64,000 nucleotides of DNA from an uncultured Gammaproteobacteria bacterium (GCA_964536725.1 CAZHYJ010000005.1:3084-67083); one strand, 5' to 3'. Counted from the stretch's first letter, positions 1,994-39,497 are shown. The notes: a model not told the origin generated them from the sequence alone. Translations and numbers: made by a program.

Positions 1994-4579
1994 TAACACT
2001 TTCTTTAAATACTGCCCAGTAAAAGTACCAGCCTTCCGTGCCACTTCTTCGGGTGTACCAGTCGCCGTCACTTCCCCGCCTTTGTCTCCACCCTCCGGAC
2101 CCAAGTCGATTATCCAATCGGCACATTTAATTACGTCTAGGTTGTGCTCAATTACCAACACGGTATTTCCCTGACTAACCAACCGCTCTAATACCACCAG
2201 CAATTTTCGCACATCCTCGTAATGCAGACCAGTGGTCGGCTCGTCTAACAAATACAAAGTTTTGGTAGTACCGTGTTTTGCCAACTCACGACTCAATTTA
2301 ATACGTTGCGCTTCCCCACCTGACAAGGTAGTGGCTGATTGCCCAAGAGTTAAATAATCCAAACCAACCTCATTCAATATTTTCAACTTGTCATAAATCA
2401 TCGGAATATCCCGAAAGAATTCCTCCGCATCTTCGATCGTCATCTCTAAAACGTCCGCGATACTTTTGCCTTTGTAATGAATCTGCAAAGTTTCTTGATT
2501 AAATCTTTTGCCTTTACAAATATCACACCCCACTTTCACGCTGGGCAAAAAATGCATTTCAATTTCCAAATATCCCCGTCCTTCGCAGTTTTCACAGCGA
2601 CCGCCAATACCGCGATGACTACCGTCTTTCGGTGGTAACGACGGAACATTGAAACTAAAACGACTAATACCAAACCCACGCATGCGTGCCTCCGGAGTGG
2701 CTGCAAACAATTCGCGGATAAAATCATAAGCCTTGGTATAGGTGGCAGGATTTGAACGCGGCGTACGCCCGATCGAACTTTGATCGATTGCGATAATCCG
2801 ATCCAAATATTCCATGCCTACAATTTCTTTAAATGCTCCAGTTGGTTTATCTAAATGATTAAATTTGTTAGACACTGCCTTTTCGATAATATCGTGCATC
2901 AAAGTACTTTTACCCGAACCGGACACACCGGTTAAACAAACAAGCCGGCGCAGCGGAATTTCAACAGTAATGTTTTTTAAATTGTGCTCCGTCGCACCTT
3001 TGACTTTCAACTTCGGTGTCGTATTGTCCACCTTACGTCTTTTTTCTGGTGTCGCGATTTTTAATTCACGACGTAAATATTTTCCCGTCAAAGATTTTTC
3101 CGCGCTACCCAAAACCTGACAAACTGGATTACTTGCTTTGTTTTTTGATAACAAACTTATCCGTGGTCCACTGTAAATGATTTCACCACCATGCTTACCT
3201 GCCCCTGGACCAAAATCTACTACCCAATCGCTGGCTAAAATTGTATCTTCGTCGTGTTCCACTACAATAATAGTATTACCAACATCACAAAGATTGCGCA
3301 ATGTTTTTACCAATTGATCATTGTCTTTTTGGTGCAAACCAATTGTGGGCTCATCCAACACGTACAAAGCACCGACCAATCGTGTGCCCACCTGACTGGC
3401 CAAACGAATACGCTGTGCTTCTCCACCTGACAAAGTGCCAGCGGTGCGGTTTAAAGTAAGGTAATGCAAACCCACATCATACATAAACTGCAGACGATTT
3501 TGAATTTCTTTTAAAACTGCTCCGGCGATTTCTTGGTCGCGACTAGGCAGTTCCATTTCTAGTTCCGCAAAAAACTCGCGGACATTGCGAATGTTCAAAG
3601 ACACCACTTCCCAAATATTTTTCCCGCCCACCCGTACGTTCAGTGCGTTTTCATTCAAACGTTTGCCATTACATTTTGGACAAACTTCTTCACTAAACAA
3701 TTCTTTCGTTCCTAAGCCAGTACAATATTCACAATATCCATATGGACTATTAAAACTAAACAAACGCGGCTCAATTTCTGGAAAACTAAAGCCATCCTTC
3801 GGACAAGAATATTCCGTCGAGAAAATTATTTCTTCCTTATCAGGAAAAATCGCGATACACAATCCATTCGCTAAATCCACTGCATTCTCCACCGCCTCAC
3901 TCAAACGCTTTTCAACCTCTGTGGTTAGACCATCGGATAATGAAATACGATCCACCACCACCGCGATATCATGCTTGTCGTTTTTACTCAAAAGCAAACG
4001 CTCGCGCAAACTTTTAAATTTCCCATCCACCCGCACTTCCAAATATCCCGAGTTATACAAATCATACAACATTTGATAATACTCACCTTTGCGCCCCCGC
4101 ACCACAGGCGATAAAATTACTAGTTCATCCTTGCCAGCATGTTTCTTAATTTTTTTAACAATCTGTTCATACATTTCATCTGTTGTCATCTTCTCAATCT
4201 TTGTGCCACACAACGGACAATGCGGCGCGCCGATACGTGCGAACAACACGCGGAGATAGTCATAAATTTCCGTAATGGTTGCTACAGTGGAACGCGGATT
4301 GGCGCTATGTGCTTTTTGATCAATCGAAATGGCTGGTGACAAGCCGTCAATTTCATCCACATCTGGTTTTTGCATGCCGCCCAAAAACTGCCGGGCATAG
4401 GCCGACAATGATTCGATATATCGTCTTTGACCTTCAGCAAAGATAGTATCAAACGCCAAAGAGGACTTGCCTGAACCAGACAAACCCGTAAAAACAATCA
4501 TTTGATTGCGTGGCAACTCCAAAGAAATATTCTTTAGATTGTGCTCGCGCGCTCCTTTGATGATAATTTTGTTTTGCAT
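1991..4579 (-). CDS. uvrA: UvrA-like excinuclease ABC subunit A paralog (862 aa) lacking the insertion domain
   Basis: Two ABC ATPase modules ([18 protein letters not shown]; signature LSGGE twice). Zn module CPLCG..CPKDG..YCEYC..CPKCNGKRL is present. Only about 13 aa separate CEYCTGLG from CPKC, against about 125 aa in the 936-aa paralog at 20622-23432. Confidence 0.85.
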   Translation of the reverse strand: MQNKIIIKGAREHNLKNISLELPRNQMIVFTGLSGSGKSSLAFDTIFAEGQRRYIESLSAYARQFLGGMQKPDVDEIDGLSPAISIDQKAHSANPRSTVATITEIYDYLRVLFARIGAPHCPLCGTKIEKMTTDEMYEQIVKKIKKHAGKDELVILSPVVRGRKGEYYQMLYDLYNSGYLEVRVDGKFKSLRERLLLSKNDKHDIAVVVDRISLSDGLTTEVEKRLSEAVENAVDLANGLCIAIFPDKEEIIFSTEYSCPKDGFSFPEIEPRLFSFNSPYGYCEYCTGLGTKELFSEEVCPKCNGKRLNENALNVRVGGKNIWEVVSLNIRNVREFFAELEMELPSRDQEIAGAVLKEIQNRLQFMYDVGLHYLTLNRTAGTLSGGEAQRIRLASQVGTRLVGALYVLDEPTIGLHQKDNDQLVKTLRNLCDVGNTIIVVEHDEDTILASDWVVDFGPGAGKHGGEIIYSGPRISLLSKNKASNPVCQVLGSAEKSLTGKYLRRELKIATPEKRRKVDNTTPKLKVKGATEHNLKNITVEIPLRRLVCLTGVSGSGKSTLMHDIIEKAVSNKFNHLDKPTGAFKEIVGMEYLDRIIAIDQSSIGRTPRSNPATYTKAYDFIRELFAATPEARMRGFGISRFSFNVPSLPPKDGSHRGIGGRCENCEGRGYLEIEMHFLPSVKVGCDICKGKRFNQETLQIHYKGKSIADVLEMTIEDAEEFFRDIPMIYDKLKILNEVGLDYLTLGQSATTLSGGEAQRIKLSRELAKHGTTKTLYLLDEPTTGLHYEDVRKLLVVLERLVSQGNTVLVIEHNLDVIKCADWIIDLGPEGGDKGGEVTATGTPEEVARKAGTFTGQYLKKVL

Positions 4580-18363: not shown

Positions 18364-18436
18364 GCGCCCATAGCTCAGGGGTTAGAGCACCGCCCTTATA
18401 AGGCGGGGGTCGATGGTTCGAAGCCATCTGGGCGCA
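18364..18436 (+). tRNA. tRNA-Ile with anticodon UAU (reads AUA)
   Basis: Hand-folded cloverleaf: acceptor gcgccca/tgggcgc, D stem gctc/gagc, anticodon stem ccgcc/ggcgg with loop CTTATAA (34-36 = TAT), T stem gatgg/ccatc with loop TTCGAAG, discriminator A. Body resembles a tRNA-Ile(GAU) sequence (…CTGATAAG… in the standard isoacceptor). No encoded CCA. Confidence 0.75.
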
Positions 18437-18438
18437 CT

Positions 18439-27982: not shown

Positions 27983-28035
27983 CAAATTTATCTCTCCTCT
28001 AGTCGAAATGAGGGAAAAACTTCTTTTAATTTATT

Positions 28036-28148
28036 GTGAAATTTGTGTGTTTGGTATTTTTTGAGCGGGTTATGAAGCCCACGGCTTCATCCTTTCATCC
28101 TCGCGGATGAAAAAAGCGAAAAAATTACCAAACGCACAAATTTCACAT
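28036..28148 (+). repeat. Structured palindromic element, copy A of a 3-member family (possible cis-regulatory RNA or MITE), in the RNase J leader
   Basis: Outer stem gtgaaatttgtgtgtttggta / taccaaacgcacaaatttcac, conserved core TTTTTTGAGCGGGTTATG, hairpin atgaagcc-cac-ggcttcat, hairpin catcc-tcgc-ggatg, then AAAAAAGCGAAAAAATTA. Ends 14 nt before the rnj ATG. Confidence 0.7.
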
Positions 28149-31148: not shown

Positions 31149-31155
31149 CCCCTTG

Positions 31156-31672
31156 TTCATTATTGGTAATCGCTCCCAAGTAATTGGGAAGAGGAAAGTC
31201 CGAACATCTCCAACGCAAGTTGGGAAAAAGACAGTGGGTAACGCCCACCCCCTAACCTGCAAAGTGTTAGGGCGGGAAAGCGGCACAGAGACAATACTAC
31301 TTTGTCCGCCGAAGCCTTGGCGAAGGAGGATCCAACCGACCCACCTCCGCTAAAGCTACGGCGGGCAAGGGAAAGGTGAAAAGCGCATGGAGGTTTTGGT
31401 TCTAGATCAAAGCTACTATGCCCCATCCACAGCAATGTGGAATGGTGCCAAGCCCTGTCTGATGCAAGAGCAGCCTTGCAACTGGAATATCTGGTTACAT
31501 GGAAAAGTTCGCTCGCGTTGATTCCGTTGGTAACAACGGGACAAGATAAATGATTACCTCCTGTTAAAAAAGCCAAGGCCAAAAGATACCGAGAAATCCA
31601 ATACGCGGAAAGTAGCGGTGTAAAATGGTTCGGCTCAACAACAGAAGACAAAATTCGGCTTATAATAATGAA
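31156..31672 (+). ncRNA. rnpB: RNase P RNA (bacterial type A-like), apparently enlarged
   Basis: Conserved blocks AGAGGAAAGTCCG (P4 5' strand), GGGTAACGCC-like, GGGAAAGGTGAAA, GCCAAAAGATACC, ACAGAAGACAAAATTCGGCTTA (P4 3' strand / CR-V). P1 pairs tcattatt with aataatga. Ends are approximate. The spacing between the conserved blocks is about 470 nt, against about 300 nt in E. coli M1 RNA. Confidence 0.85.
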
Positions 31673-31675
31673 ACT

Positions 31676-31706
31676 AAAAATCCGACCTTAATTGGTCGGA
31701 TTTTTT
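31676..31706. terminator. Intrinsic terminator after rnpB (possibly bidirectional)
   Basis: Stem aaaaatccgacc/ggtcggatttttt. The stop of the minus-strand ORF 31688-32047 lies inside the hairpin. Confidence 0.7.
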
Positions 31707-33558: not shown

Positions 33559-34681
33559 AACTATGCGAATCGCCCTAGTACATGATTATCTCGCGCAAGA
33601 TGGAGGGGCGGAGCGCGTCTTGAAAGCTCTCCAAGAAATTTGGCCTAGTGCGCCAATTTTTGTGTTGTTTCACGATCCCAAGAAAATCAACTACATCCCC
33701 ACTGAAAAAATTACTGAATCATTTTTAGCAAAAATGCCTTTTATTCGCTCGTCGTTCCCGTGGTACCTATCACTAATGCCGGTGGCCACTGAACGCCATG
33801 ATCTAAGTAAATTTGACATCGTCATTTCTTCTTCTAGTGTCTTCGCTAAAGGTGTAATCACCCCACCACACGCTTTGCACGTTTCCTACTGCCACACACC
33901 CGCCCGCTTCCTCTGGGCAGATGGTCACCACTATTTGTCTGATCTAAAGAGAAGTTGGTTGGTTAAAAAAATCCTACCCATCATAATGCACCGCCTGCGC
34001 CTCTGGGACCAAATGAGTACCCAAAGAGTCGATCGATTTATTGCTAATTCCCACACAGTTCGTCAACGTATTTTAAAATATTATCGTCGTGAAAGTGTTG
34101 TTATCTACCCGCCCGTGAATATTACCCCATCCTCAGTCAACCGAATTGGACAATATTTTATCGCCGGCGGACGCTTGGTCCCTTACAAACGCCTAGACAT
34201 TGCCGTTAAAACTTTCAATCGTTTAGGTTGGAATTTAAAGATATTTGGTACTGGACCAGAATTAAATTATCTCAAAAAAATCGCTAAACCAAATATCGAA
34301 TTTTTAGGAAAAATATCCGAAGAAGAAAAAGCTAATTTGCTTTCTGGCGCACGCGCTTTCATCCACCCGCAACTAGAAGATTTTGGCATCACCCCCATCG
34401 AAAGTATGGCCGCCGGCCGTCCCGTTATCGCCTATGGCCAGGGTGGCGCTACTGAAACTGTGCGCCATAATATTACTGGTGTGTTTTTTCCTGAGCAGAC
34501 TTGGGAATCGCTCTATGAGGCGGTAGTTAAATTTAAACCGTTTGAATGGGACACAGAAAAGATCAAAGAACACGCCACTAAATTTAGCACGGAAAAATTT
34601 AAGACGGAAATAAAAAAACAAGTCGAGGACTATTACGAGGAGTTTAAAAAAGGATGGAATCAGTGCCAGTTGATAAAGTAA
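33548..34681 (+). CDS. GT4-family glycosyltransferase
   Basis: C-terminal GT-B motifs (EDFGITPIESMAAGRPVIA). 11-nt overlap with the upstream sugar transferase gene. Confidence 0.85.
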   Translation: MLGKTMRIALVHDYLAQDGGAERVLKALQEIWPSAPIFVLFHDPKKINYIPTEKITESFLAKMPFIRSSFPWYLSLMPVATERHDLSKFDIVISSSSVFAKGVITPPHALHVSYCHTPARFLWADGHHYLSDLKRSWLVKKILPIIMHRLRLWDQMSTQRVDRFIANSHTVRQRILKYYRRESVVIYPPVNITPSSVNRIGQYFIAGGRLVPYKRLDIAVKTFNRLGWNLKIFGTGPELNYLKKIAKPNIEFLGKISEEEKANLLSGARAFIHPQLEDFGITPIESMAAGRPVIAYGQGGATETVRHNITGVFFPEQTWESLYEAVVKFKPFEWDTEKIKEHATKFSTEKFKTEIKKQVEDYYEEFKKGWNQCQLIK

Positions 34682-34860
34682 AAAACAATAAAATAGCCAC
34701 AGTTACCTAGCGAAGTTTTGCTAAAAAAATAATAAGTTTTTAGTAAAATATCATTGCTTGAGGCCTCGCGGCCGAGTTATGATATTTTACGTAAGAAAAC
34801 TTATTATTTTTTTCAAAACGTAGCGCGGTAACTGTGGTTATTTTATTGTTTTTTATCAAT
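34682..34860. repeat. Long (~180 bp) near-perfect palindrome filling the gap between convergent gene stops, with a GAGGCCTCGCGGCCGAG core
   Basis: Left arm aaaaacaataaaatagccacagttacc...aaaaaaataataagtttt pairs with right arm aaaacttattattttttt...ggtaactgtggttattttattgtttttt. Inner stem gtaaaatatcat/atgatattttac encloses gaggcctcgcggccgag. The same GC core occurs in element copy C (39391-39497). Confidence 0.65.
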
Positions 34861-37326: not shown

Positions 37327-37530
37327 AAAAGTATTAGTTAGACGCCAATATTATATACCAAAAAATGAAAAAAAACAATCTAAAATAAAAAAGAAACAAC
37401 CGAGTGATTGTTTTTTAAATGAGAAAGGCGGTGGGAGGGCGACGCATCTTTCTGAATCCGACATAGCTGTCAGCTCACAGAAAAATATTGCGTCGCCCTT
37501 GCCTTATGGTGGGTGGAGCCGAGGTGGTCG

Positions 37531-37953
37531 TCACTTGGTGAACGGCCGCTCCCGTGGCGGCGCGGGTACGGACGGCTGAACGGCGGGGAACCCCGGGGCG
37601 AGACAGAAGATCTCTCCGCGCAGCCCGCCGGCTTCGTCGCTTGAGTACGCGACGCGGATCTCGTACCCCGGGGGGCAGATCCACTGCGAGGGCACCGGCT
37701 TGCCGGCGACGTCCGTCGCACGACACACCATCCCCACACCGCCCGCACCTCCTTCGTCATGGCAGCTCATCACGGCCTCCGAACGGACCACCACCGACGG
37801 CGTCGTTCGAGAGGACGACGTCCGAAGGGGGGGAAGCTCCTCGTCGTGTTCGCCGGCGACGATCGGCTTTCCGAAAGCCCCGCCACACCACGCCACGAGC
37901 ACGACGATCCCCACAGCCACCAGCACCGCAACCTTCTTCGATCCTTCCGACAT
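37531..37953 (-). CDS. Small secreted Cys-containing hypothetical protein on a GC-rich island
   Basis: Within about 560 bp of roughly 65-70% GC. GGAGG lies 7 nt before the ATG. Signal or TM segment VAVLVAVGIVVLVAWCGGAFG. A GC-rich stem (gggcgacgca...tgcgtcgccc) lies downstream. Other-frame ORFs here are Arg-rich GC artefacts. Confidence 0.5.
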   Translation of the reverse strand: MSEGSKKVAVLVAVGIVVLVAWCGGAFGKPIVAGEHDEELPPLRTSSSRTTPSVVVRSEAVMSCHDEGGAGGVGMVCRATDVAGKPVPSQWICPPGYEIRVAYSSDEAGGLRGEIFCLAPGFPAVQPSVPAPPRERPFTK

Positions 37954-38111
37954 ACCGTTTGCCTCCTGGCAAATCAGCCCACCAATTTGGGCATTGTACC
38001 GAACAAAATACTTCATAAATATTCTGATCGGTAAAATCCCCAAAAACACCATAAGTAACAGCTAAAGATAGCAAACTTTTGCCTTTTTGTCAATATACTG
38101 TTAAAATCAGA

Positions 38112-38219
38112 GTAGAAGTTACACGTTTGGTATTTTTTGAGCGGGTTATGCGCCAAGGCACATCCTTTCGCCCTCGCGGGCGAAAAAAGCGAAAAAATTA
38201 CCAAACGTGTAACTTCTAC
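38112..38219 (+). repeat. Structured palindromic element, copy B, in the GT4 gene leader
   Basis: Outer stem gtagaagttacacgtttggta / taccaaacgtgtaacttctac (perfect), core TTTTTTGAGCGGGTTATG, hairpin 1 atgcgcc-aa-ggcacat, hairpin 2 cgccc-tcgc-gggcg, AAAAAAGCGAAAAAATTA. Ends 8 nt before the ATG at 38228. Confidence 0.7.
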
Positions 38220-39390: not shown

Positions 39391-39497
39391 GAAATTACGC
39401 GTTTGATATTTTTTGAGCGGGTTATGAAGTCCACAGACTTCATCCCTGAGGCCTCGCGGCCGAGGAAAGTGAAAAAATTATCAAACACGTAATTTCT
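39391..39497 (+). repeat. Structured palindromic element, copy C, in the leader of the large surface protein gene
   Basis: Outer stem gaaattacgcgtttgata / tatcaaacacgtaatttc, core TTTTTTGAGCGGGTTATG, hairpin 1 atgaagtc-caca-gacttcat (compensatory relative to copy A), hairpin 2 cctcg-cggc-cgagg within gaggcctcgcggccgagg, then GAAAGTGAAAAAATTA. Confidence 0.7.

Follow-up and report, generated by a model that had tools for sequence, protein, structure and literature searches.

Among the systems closest to the element described here are bidirectional intrinsic (Rho-independent) terminators, which lie just past both stop codons and in which an A-tract, a stem of 5-14 bp with a 3-8-nt loop, and a T-tract give each strand a hairpin followed by a U-tract; bidirectional termination is treated in bioRxiv 10.1101/2022.10.23.513370. 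Small palindromic repeats can influence termination, mRNA stability, and RNase III cleavage (PMC2649163, PMC2229807, PMC3049150, and PMC10969869). The REP/BIME, ERIC, Correia (CREE), and BOX/RUP repeats are intergenic, co-transcribed hairpins with a sporadic distribution among close relatives. Some mobile elements in turn target hairpins: IS1397 and ISKpn1 do so at REP loops, and class C group II introns do so beside terminators. We analyzed a 64,000-nt stretch of DNA deposited as an uncultured Gammaproteobacteria bacterium (GCA_964536725.1 CAZHYJ010000005.1:3084-67083; hereafter the window), in which a long palindrome lies between convergent genes for a GT4 protein and an Nramp protein. We consider this palindrome to be, with a probability of about 0.6, a composite of three parts: the shell of a short bidirectional terminator, a core from a family of long hairpins that we call LP, and a tip from a second repeat family built around a three-way junction.

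The palindrome (34679-34855) is a single imperfect hairpin of 177 nt that occupies the entire GT4/Nramp spacer, much as the earlier note on this DNA had described it. GT4 (Pfam Glycos_transf_1 / Glyco_transf_4) ends at TAA 34679-34681, and Nramp (PF01566; 415 aa, equal in length to its homologues), which is on the minus strand, ends at TGA 34856-34858, so that 174 nt separate the two stop codons. The palindrome is the longest inverted repeat of the window, and its self-alignment is 82.6% identical over 184 columns. As RNA, its + strand folds at -88.7 kcal/mol, against -31.4 +/- 4.1 for shuffled sequences (z -13.9; none of 200 shuffles was as good), and its minus strand at -77.3 kcal/mol (z -13.4). 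The arms and the tip are as follows.

34679-34727 / 34807-34855: outer arms, 49 nt, 86% complementary
34723-34740 / 34796-34813: inner arms, 18 nt, 100% complementary
34759-34776, + strand: apex TGAGGCCTCGCGGCCGAG, a GGCC/GGCC stem with a TCGC loop and GA/GA flanks
34762-34773: tip GGCC-TCGC-GGCC

Read on the minus strand, the apex loop is GCGA, which is of GNRA type. Small open reading frames (ORFs) within the palindrome have TTG starts only and span 21-39 aa, a promoter scan within it gave a single weak match (9/12) that shuffled sequences equal, and a phage BLAST returned no match.

A palindrome of this length could be a fold-back chimera, in which assembly or amplification joined two contigs at a hairpin, and all of the Logan short-read contigs of the same organism (several SRA runs, located by exact-protein look-up) do end within it, between 34736 and 34765. 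Those entering from the GT4 side carry the left arm up to 34736 or 34752, and those entering from the Nramp side carry the right arm back to 34765 or 34759. However, the two arms differ from one another at defined positions, and each is recovered exactly, arm-to-arm mismatch positions included, in several independent runs; contig L002 spans the whole 18-nt apex, and GT4 and Nramp are also convergent neighbors in five relatives (contigs L004, L007, L009, L170, and L171). The palindrome is confirmed as genuine, and the chimera is scarcely credible. The Logan contigs involved are L001-L003 and L165-L168; at its other end, L001 breaks within the P3 region (38186) of element B, described below. No perfect repeat of at least 31 nt explains the contig breaks, and flip-flop inversion of the apex was rejected as their cause as the break points do not fit; our guess is a hairpin-related loss of coverage. 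Hairpins of the two families discussed here are probably a systematic source of fragmented genome bins in the Candidate Phyla Radiation (CPR).

The body of the palindrome belongs, by homology, to LP, an apparently undescribed family defined from L064:3048-3219, L095:2115-2283, and L158:5589-5796. Copies were sought as long inverted repeats in ∼1 Mb of contigs fetched for another purpose, and those recovered, of ∼170-210 nt, were L095:2115-2283, L158:5589-5796, L095:3146-3328, and L148:7393-7569; a profile of the window copy with those of L095 and L158 then recovered the further member L064:3048-3219 (E 6.4e-22). A hidden Markov model (HMM) built from the L064 and L095 copies, with the window left out, finds 34701-34832 at E 3.8e-9, the next match in the window being at E 0.9. 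Global alignment of the window copy is colinear with L095:2115-2283 (z 8.9) and gives z 12.0 with L064, and this homology is specific for orientation, the opposite orientation scoring just 39 and 59. In three aligned copies, 19 of the 65 consensus pairs are changed on both sides with pairing kept. The window palindrome shares the overall form of the family, one continuous hairpin of 170-210 nt, and its core is arranged as follows.

34701-34832, + strand: LP-family core, a ∼130-nt hairpin homologous to L064:3048-3219(-) and L095:2115-2283(-)
34708-34722, + strand: conserved LP block TAGCGAAGTTTTGCT, 5′ side of an internal loop
34814-34826, + strand: conserved LP block CAAAACGTAGCGC, 3′ side of the same internal loop
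34723-34741, + strand: left arm of an A/T-rich 19-bp stem, partner 34795-34813
34795-34813, + strand: right arm of the A/T-rich 19-bp stem, partner 34723-34741
34744-34754, + strand: left arm TAAAATATCAT of an 11-bp stem, within conserved LP block TAGTAAAAT, partner 34779-34789
34779-34789, + strand: right arm ATGATATTTTA of the 11-bp stem, running on into conserved LP block ATTTTACGTAAG

The blocks conserved between copies are TAGCGAAGTTTT(A)GC, TAGTAAAAT, TTGAG...CGAGTT, ATTTTACGT(T)AAG, and AAAACG(T/A)AGC. Among the ∼1 Mb of fetched loci, the 12-mer TAGCGAAGTTTT occurs only in the window (and the Logan contigs of the same organism) and in L095. At the two ends of the element, the last ∼22-28 nt have no relationship from one LP copy to the next, although within any one copy they are complementary. 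The L064 copy fills the spacer of convergent ORFs 2397-3047 and 3220-3915, and the L095 and L148 copies fill co-directional spacers, ending 6-20 nt before the next start codon (that at L095:2115-2283 lies between a stop at 2114 and a start at 2290); the ORFs that flank these homologues differ from GT4 and Nramp. The window holds one LP copy only. On L095, three consecutive spacers (2115-2283, 3146-3328, and 4448-4558) are each wholly filled by a long hairpin, two of them LP-type elements ∼1 kb apart that stop 6 and 11 nt before start codons and one a three-way-junction element; one of the downstream genes there is QueA-like from its N-terminus.

The tip of the palindrome appears to derive from the second family, which the window carries at three sites. 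These elements, designated A, B, and C, were called leaders in the earlier note and are ∼110 nt long. They have in common a long closing stem P1, the junction strand TTGAGCGGGTT, a variable hairpin P2 (ATG...CAT), a hairpin P3 with the tip CCTCGCGG, and the junction strand AAAGCGAAA.

28035-28147, + strand: element A, 99.7 bits, tied to the palindrome by its P3 hairpin only
38112-38219, + strand: element B, 109.6 bits, not at the same site in L004, L005, and L006
39390-39497, + strand: element C, 91.1 bits, with the identical 18-nt P3 and clean presence/absence relative to L004

The palindrome apex TGAGGCCTCGCGGCCGAG (34759-34776) and positions 39447-39464 of element C are identical at 18 of 18 positions, which bears out the shared GC core reported earlier. 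Its central 8-mer, CCTCGCGG, occurs exactly four times in the 64-kb window, where 0.8 would be expected, and every occurrence is a + strand hairpin tip (elements A, B, and C and the palindrome), so a core that is common merely by chance is not what is seen. An nhmmer search with the three-way-junction profile finds 34752-34776 at E 0.0067, and identical cores of 17-19 nt are present in at least 12 three-way-junction copies on other contigs. Other LP elements do not match this profile. Their usual apex is TTTGA-GCGAAGC-GAGTTTT, which includes GCGAAGC, an exceptionally stable DNA mini-hairpin, whereas the window copy has TTGAG-GCCTCGCGGC-CGAGTT; the loop CGAAG of the others (TTGAG-CGAAG-CGAGTT) is replaced by GCCTCGCGGC. 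With this replacement the tip is exactly the P3 designated "type II" in the three-way-junction family, (C)TGAG-GCCTCGCGGC-CGAG(G), and TGAG...CGAG flanks are common to LP and P3 tips. The usual LP apex was seen in L064, L095, and L158 (for example L095:2190-2215), and TTTGAGCG is common to the LP apex and the 5′ junction of the three-way-junction family.

The likeness of the palindrome to elements A, B, and C stops at this tip. Within 34679-34855 there is neither of the invariant junctions TTGAGCGGGTT and AAAGCGAAA; look-alikes (TAGCGAAG and GTAGCGC) are weak and not significant. There is also no P2, 22 model positions being deleted there in the covariance-model alignment. With this covariance model (R1), the + strand of the palindrome scores 26.1 bits (34721-34816) and its minus strand 12.3 bits, as compared with 66-121 bits for members, 13-18 bits for generic terminators, and up to 33 bits for reverse-strand echoes of members. 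Resemblances of AGCG and AAAATATCA to three-way-junction elements were considered and are not relied upon, as the similarity is not significant. The link to the leader family proposed in the earlier note therefore holds for the apex and fails for membership. By sequence, the window copy is a chimera in which an LP body carries a three-way-junction P3 tip. An identity of 18 nt is unlikely to arise by convergence, so the apex was presumably exchanged, and element C, 4.7 kb away on the same strand, is a plausible donor.

The three-way-junction family is widespread. A metagenome scan with the pattern TTGAGCGGGTTATG N12-40 CCTCGCGG found it in at least 120 loci (L045-L164), a contig often holding several copies. 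When 112 copies are aligned, each column of the junctions TTGAGCGGGTT and AAAGCGAAA is invariant or conserved to at least 90%, and compensatory changes are seen in 20 of 29 consensus pairs. The reverse-strand loops of 111 copies are an invariant GCGA together with C(CUCG)G in 43, C(UUCG)G in 12, C(UGCG)G in six, and C(CUUG)G in six; CUCG, UUCG, UGCG, CUUG, and GCGA are all stable RNA tetraloop classes. Counts of wobble pairs, taken as a guide to the strand of function, are G.T 33 and A.C 31, and by inspection the ATG in the core has no conserved reading frame, the frame shifting with the length of P2. In the window and its relatives, B and C are cleanly missing at the equivalent sites of L004, L005, and L006, and these sites lie between a promoter and a start codon. 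Across the metagenomes, however, "leader" is not an apt label, for the elements are found mostly at gene 3′ ends and in convergent spacers: among 94 copies with two called neighbors, 35 are convergent, 52 co-directional (34 antisense and 18 sense relative to the motif strand), and seven divergent. Among 32 convergent copies, 27 have an A-run as well as a T-run flanking the foot of the outer stem, each run having a background frequency of ∼36%; in co-directional copies, the frequency of the run that follows the hairpin drops to background (41-48%). Outer P1 thus resembles a terminator in contexts that call for termination, and the family seems to keep a terminator shell only there. A branched multi-hairpin element with A-run/T-run flanks at L063:1925-2062 (minus strand; 26 bits with model R1) has junction strands TTTTGAGC... 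/ ...GCGAGAAA that are reminiscent of this family and a different interior, and it may be a distant relative.

Neither family has a match in Rfam 15 at gathering or permissive thresholds (window plus four loci), and nothing matching either was found in the searchable literature, motif strings included. Searches of viral contigs for the core, leader motif, LP apex, and LP gapped pattern gave chance matches only, as checked with both HMMs. The window comes from a Patescibacteria (CPR) bacterium, judging from the Magasanikbacteria-type names of the Nramp and GT4 homologues, and both families are placed in Patescibacteria.

The same spacer was compared in relatives with Nramp identities of 87-91%; a search through GT4 homologues for closer relatives found none above 89% identity. 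What lies at the site is as follows.

L004: 43-nt spacer, AAAACCCCGGTAACAACCGGGGTTTT
L009: spacer sequence AAAAATACCGACCAAGTCGGTATTTT
L007: spacer sequence AAAAAAGCACCTGTGGTAAGGTGCTTTTTT
L005 and L006: an additional gene is present, with short terminators 3′ of Nramp
L170: a short terminator and, adjoining it, a canonical three-way-junction element (79.1 bits), in a 138-nt spacer
L171 (GT4 88% identity), 3402-3416: a 15-nt overlap of convergent GT4 and Nramp leaves neither a spacer nor a terminator

The spacers of L004, L007, and L009 are 43-59 nt long and contain short A-tract/hairpin/T-tract terminators of unrelated sequence. The hairpins of relatives at this site are 20-30 nt, and the long palindrome is not present in the spacer of the six relatives. 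The comparison with relatives that the earlier note had proposed, in which an equally long palindrome of unrelated sequence would have spoken for a generic terminator, thus turned up short hairpins or none. From these comparisons, the GT4/Nramp site is one that normally carries a short bidirectional terminator of rapidly changing sequence, and the long palindrome appears as a lineage-specific feature. In L170 the element has the same orientation as the window tip, with CCTCGCGG on the GT4-sense strand in both. Since one spacer holds the palindrome and the other a three-way-junction copy, hairpin repeats appear to have entered this spacer at least twice.

The outermost part of the palindrome is where its terminator character resides.

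34679-34700, + strand: left outer shell TAAAAAACAATAAAATAGCCAC, an A-tract and the left half of the outermost stem, locus-specific
34833-34855, + strand: right outer shell TGTGGTTATTTTATTGTTTTTTA, a stem half and the T-tract after the hairpin for GT4, locus-specific

On the minus strand the left shell supplies the U-tract after the hairpin for Nramp transcription, and a terminator scan chose CGCGGTAACTGTG followed by GTTATTTTAT in the right shell. Just past the stop codons, each strand has a G+C-containing stem and a U-tract, as in bidirectional terminators: the stem GCCACAGUUACC/GGUAACUGUGGU leads into UUAUUUUAUUGUUUUUU when the + strand is read and into UAUUUUAUUGUUUUUU when the minus strand is read. 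Ordinary terminators of the window, and the short ones of the relatives, have the same A-run/stem/T-run design. The compact hairpin of such terminators is lacking, as ∼120 folded nucleotides separate the basal 12-bp stem halves 34696-34707 / 34827-34838. The shell lies outside the LP homology, which is bounded at 34701 and 34832 in the HMM alignment. Because the homology ends there and the shell alone has the design of a terminator, insertion into the loop of a pre-existing terminator is the history we infer. The shell would be the original short bidirectional intrinsic terminator, with an A-tract, an 8-9-bp stem AUAGCCAC(A)/(U)GUGGUUAU, and a U-tract, and a self-folding LP core of ∼130 nt would have lodged in its loop. 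The LP tip would then have been exchanged, most likely through gene conversion or short-patch recombination in which a nearby copy, for instance C, was the partner and the TGAG...CGAG flanks were used. A self-folding insert would merely lengthen the terminator hairpin, the basal stem and U-tract surviving on both strands, and both mRNAs may end in, and be protected by, one ∼87-bp hairpin; an RNA duplex of about this length would also suit RNase III well as a substrate. The A/T runs of the three-way-junction family, which vary with context, fit, by analogy, with a shell of terminator origin. Of the earlier proposal of a bidirectional terminator built from the leader module, the terminator site with its A-tract, basal stem, and T-tract is retained, and the source of the body is not, as it comes from LP.

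Several points weigh against this composite reading. The six nucleotides 34753-34758, next to the apex, are present in the window assembly alone. The LP copies known besides that of the window number just 3-5, all from the same ∼1 Mb of contigs, and as those on L095 and L148 lie directly upstream of co-directional genes, the LP core alone cannot terminate efficiently. The case for the shell as an ancestral terminator consists of the homology boundaries and a resemblance; a relative with exactly this outer stem minus the insert was not found among those compared, and L171, which lacks a terminator, indicates that one is dispensable here. Finally, the 26 bits of the palindrome with model R1 fall inside the range of reverse-strand echoes, and its interior halves have no significant similarity to three-way-junction elements (p 0.01-0.7).

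Insertion is also the essence of the MITE-like origin (miniature inverted-repeat transposable element) that the earlier note had considered, in which an element with terminal inverted repeats, mobilized in trans by a DDE transposase, landed between GT4 and Nramp. The palindromic, intergenic, AT-rich nature of the element, its absence from the site in relatives, and the related copies at unrelated loci on other contigs all agree with this. However, a target-site duplication was found at none of six LP copies, that of the window included (TTGAT/ATCAA, which flank the palindrome, form an inverted and not a direct repeat), there is one copy in the 64 kb, and the termini differ between LP copies while the interior is conserved, which is the opposite of recognition through terminal repeats. 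Nor do the arms serve as evidence for a MITE, as they have no match in the collections searched: an arm 18-mer gave 30 single-arm chance matches and no two-arm match in one genome per species of 185,579 species, a set from which the source genome is therefore missing, and an arm 26-mer gave 0 matches in JGI metagenomes. A classical MITE is accordingly very improbable. We find even less to recommend growth in place, whereby local inverted duplication or template switching expanded an ordinary terminator and the GC hairpin is convergent. The terminator position, the A- and T-tracts, and the fast sequence turnover of orthologous terminators would suit it, yet it accounts neither for ∼130 nt of colinear homology to elements at unrelated loci (E 3.8e-9) nor for an 18-nt apex identity that extends over the non-pairing GA/GA flanks, and the 20-30-nt hairpins of relatives are never long.

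A different kind of explanation concerns why such elements persist. The palindrome could be a dedicated structured element, either RNA or single-stranded DNA, that has a partner of its own, for which the conserved internal-loop blocks UAGCGAAG/CGUAGCG, UAGUAAAAU, and ACGU(U)AAG and the P3 tip would be binding or processing sites; candidate partners are a Patescibacteria RNase, a termination or antitermination factor, or an HUH-type single-strand DNA enzyme. It would then be retained for that function and not as a passenger merely tolerated, a view that overlaps in part with the composite reading. In its favor, LP blocks are conserved in one orientation at unrelated loci while the stems co-vary, and the junction nucleotides of the other family are invariant over at least 120 loci with compensatory changes in 20 of 29 pairs. 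The tetraloop classes of the reverse strand (with GCGA invariant), the stable GCGAAGC in LP apices elsewhere, and the survival of such elements in very compact genomes point the same way. On the other hand, elements occur in both orientations relative to neighboring genes (∼2:1), which one would not expect of an RNA acting strictly in cis, their clean presence or absence among close relatives shows that adjacent genes do not need them, and no partner protein has been identified. On balance we think this explanation unlikely. The composite origin of shell, core, and tip remains our preferred account of the palindrome. A broader extension of it is that LP and the three-way-junction family form a Patescibacteria-wide modular repeat system that lodges in or builds terminators, swaps modules, and is strand-specifically recognized by a dedicated host or selfish protein; this is a possibility that we offer as doubtful and tentative.

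Some other features of the window and of the fetched contigs were noticed. A G+C island (37500-37950; 68-72% G+C in a genome of ∼41% G+C) lies just upstream of element B and looks like a foreign insertion. The 173-aa ORF that it contains (37531-38052, minus strand) has a hydrophobic segment at the N-terminus and matches nothing in Pfam. Logan contig L001, which is from the same organism and covers this stretch, also has the island, and in L004 the place is taken by a 192-aa ORF whose sequence is visibly different. At 31154-31678 lies a class A RNase P RNA (138.5 bits) that is 525 nt long, compared with a 367-position model, and has several large insertions. A tRNA-Ile gene with anticodon TAT (UAU) at 18364-18437 represents an uncommon bacterial means of reading AUA. 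A structured RNA-like sequence of ∼165 nt with a long enclosing stem and A-run/T-run flanks is found at L055:5784-5949, L141:9289-9454, and L164:5445-5610; judged by eye, it looks like a 5S rRNA whose processing stem is extended.

Patescibacteria genomes are ∼1 Mb with very short spacers, yet whole spacers are taken by these large conserved hairpins. If elements do lodge in terminator loops, this would explain how repeats can spread harmlessly in compact genomes, and it would provide a handle on termination and RNA processing in organisms that are not culturable alone. If the modular system were real, it would be a new class of "mobile terminator inserts" that shape transcript ends and genome plasticity in ultra-small genomes, and the window palindrome would be a natural recombinant joining both families. 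The palindrome alone is of modest interest, and its value is as a bridge between two apparently undescribed repeat families.

Set beside the described systems, the palindrome has the position and the A-tract/stem/T-tract plan of bidirectional intrinsic terminators, but its arms are ∼87 nt, its "loop" is a 130-nt repeat, and its termination in both directions is predicted. It resembles the three-way-junction family in its P3 tip TGAGGCCTCGCGGCCGAG, in a long closing stem with A/T-run flanks, and in favoring convergent spacers and the 3′ ends of genes, and in L170 this very spacer holds a canonical copy of that family; it differs in its LP body and in having no invariant junction strands and no P2. 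With REP/BIME, ERIC, Correia, and BOX/RUP repeats there is no sequence kinship, the size differs, and the palindrome's family is one of Patescibacteria. The REP/BIME units are 20-40 nt with a 5′ GTAG-type tetranucleotide, unlike LP in unit size and blocks, and Correia-type repeats have conserved ends, whereas LP has a conserved interior and locus-specific outer stems. LP copies also differ from interspersed repeats in general in having no target duplication, in that no association with a RAYT or DDE transposase was seen, and in that LP swaps modules with a second family, one whose core is a three-way junction. The palindrome is without coding capacity and without intron or insertion sequence (IS) features, and the elements that target hairpins offer no more than an analogy to it; the proposed lodging in a terminator would explain both the locus-specific outer stems and the bias toward gene 3′ ends.

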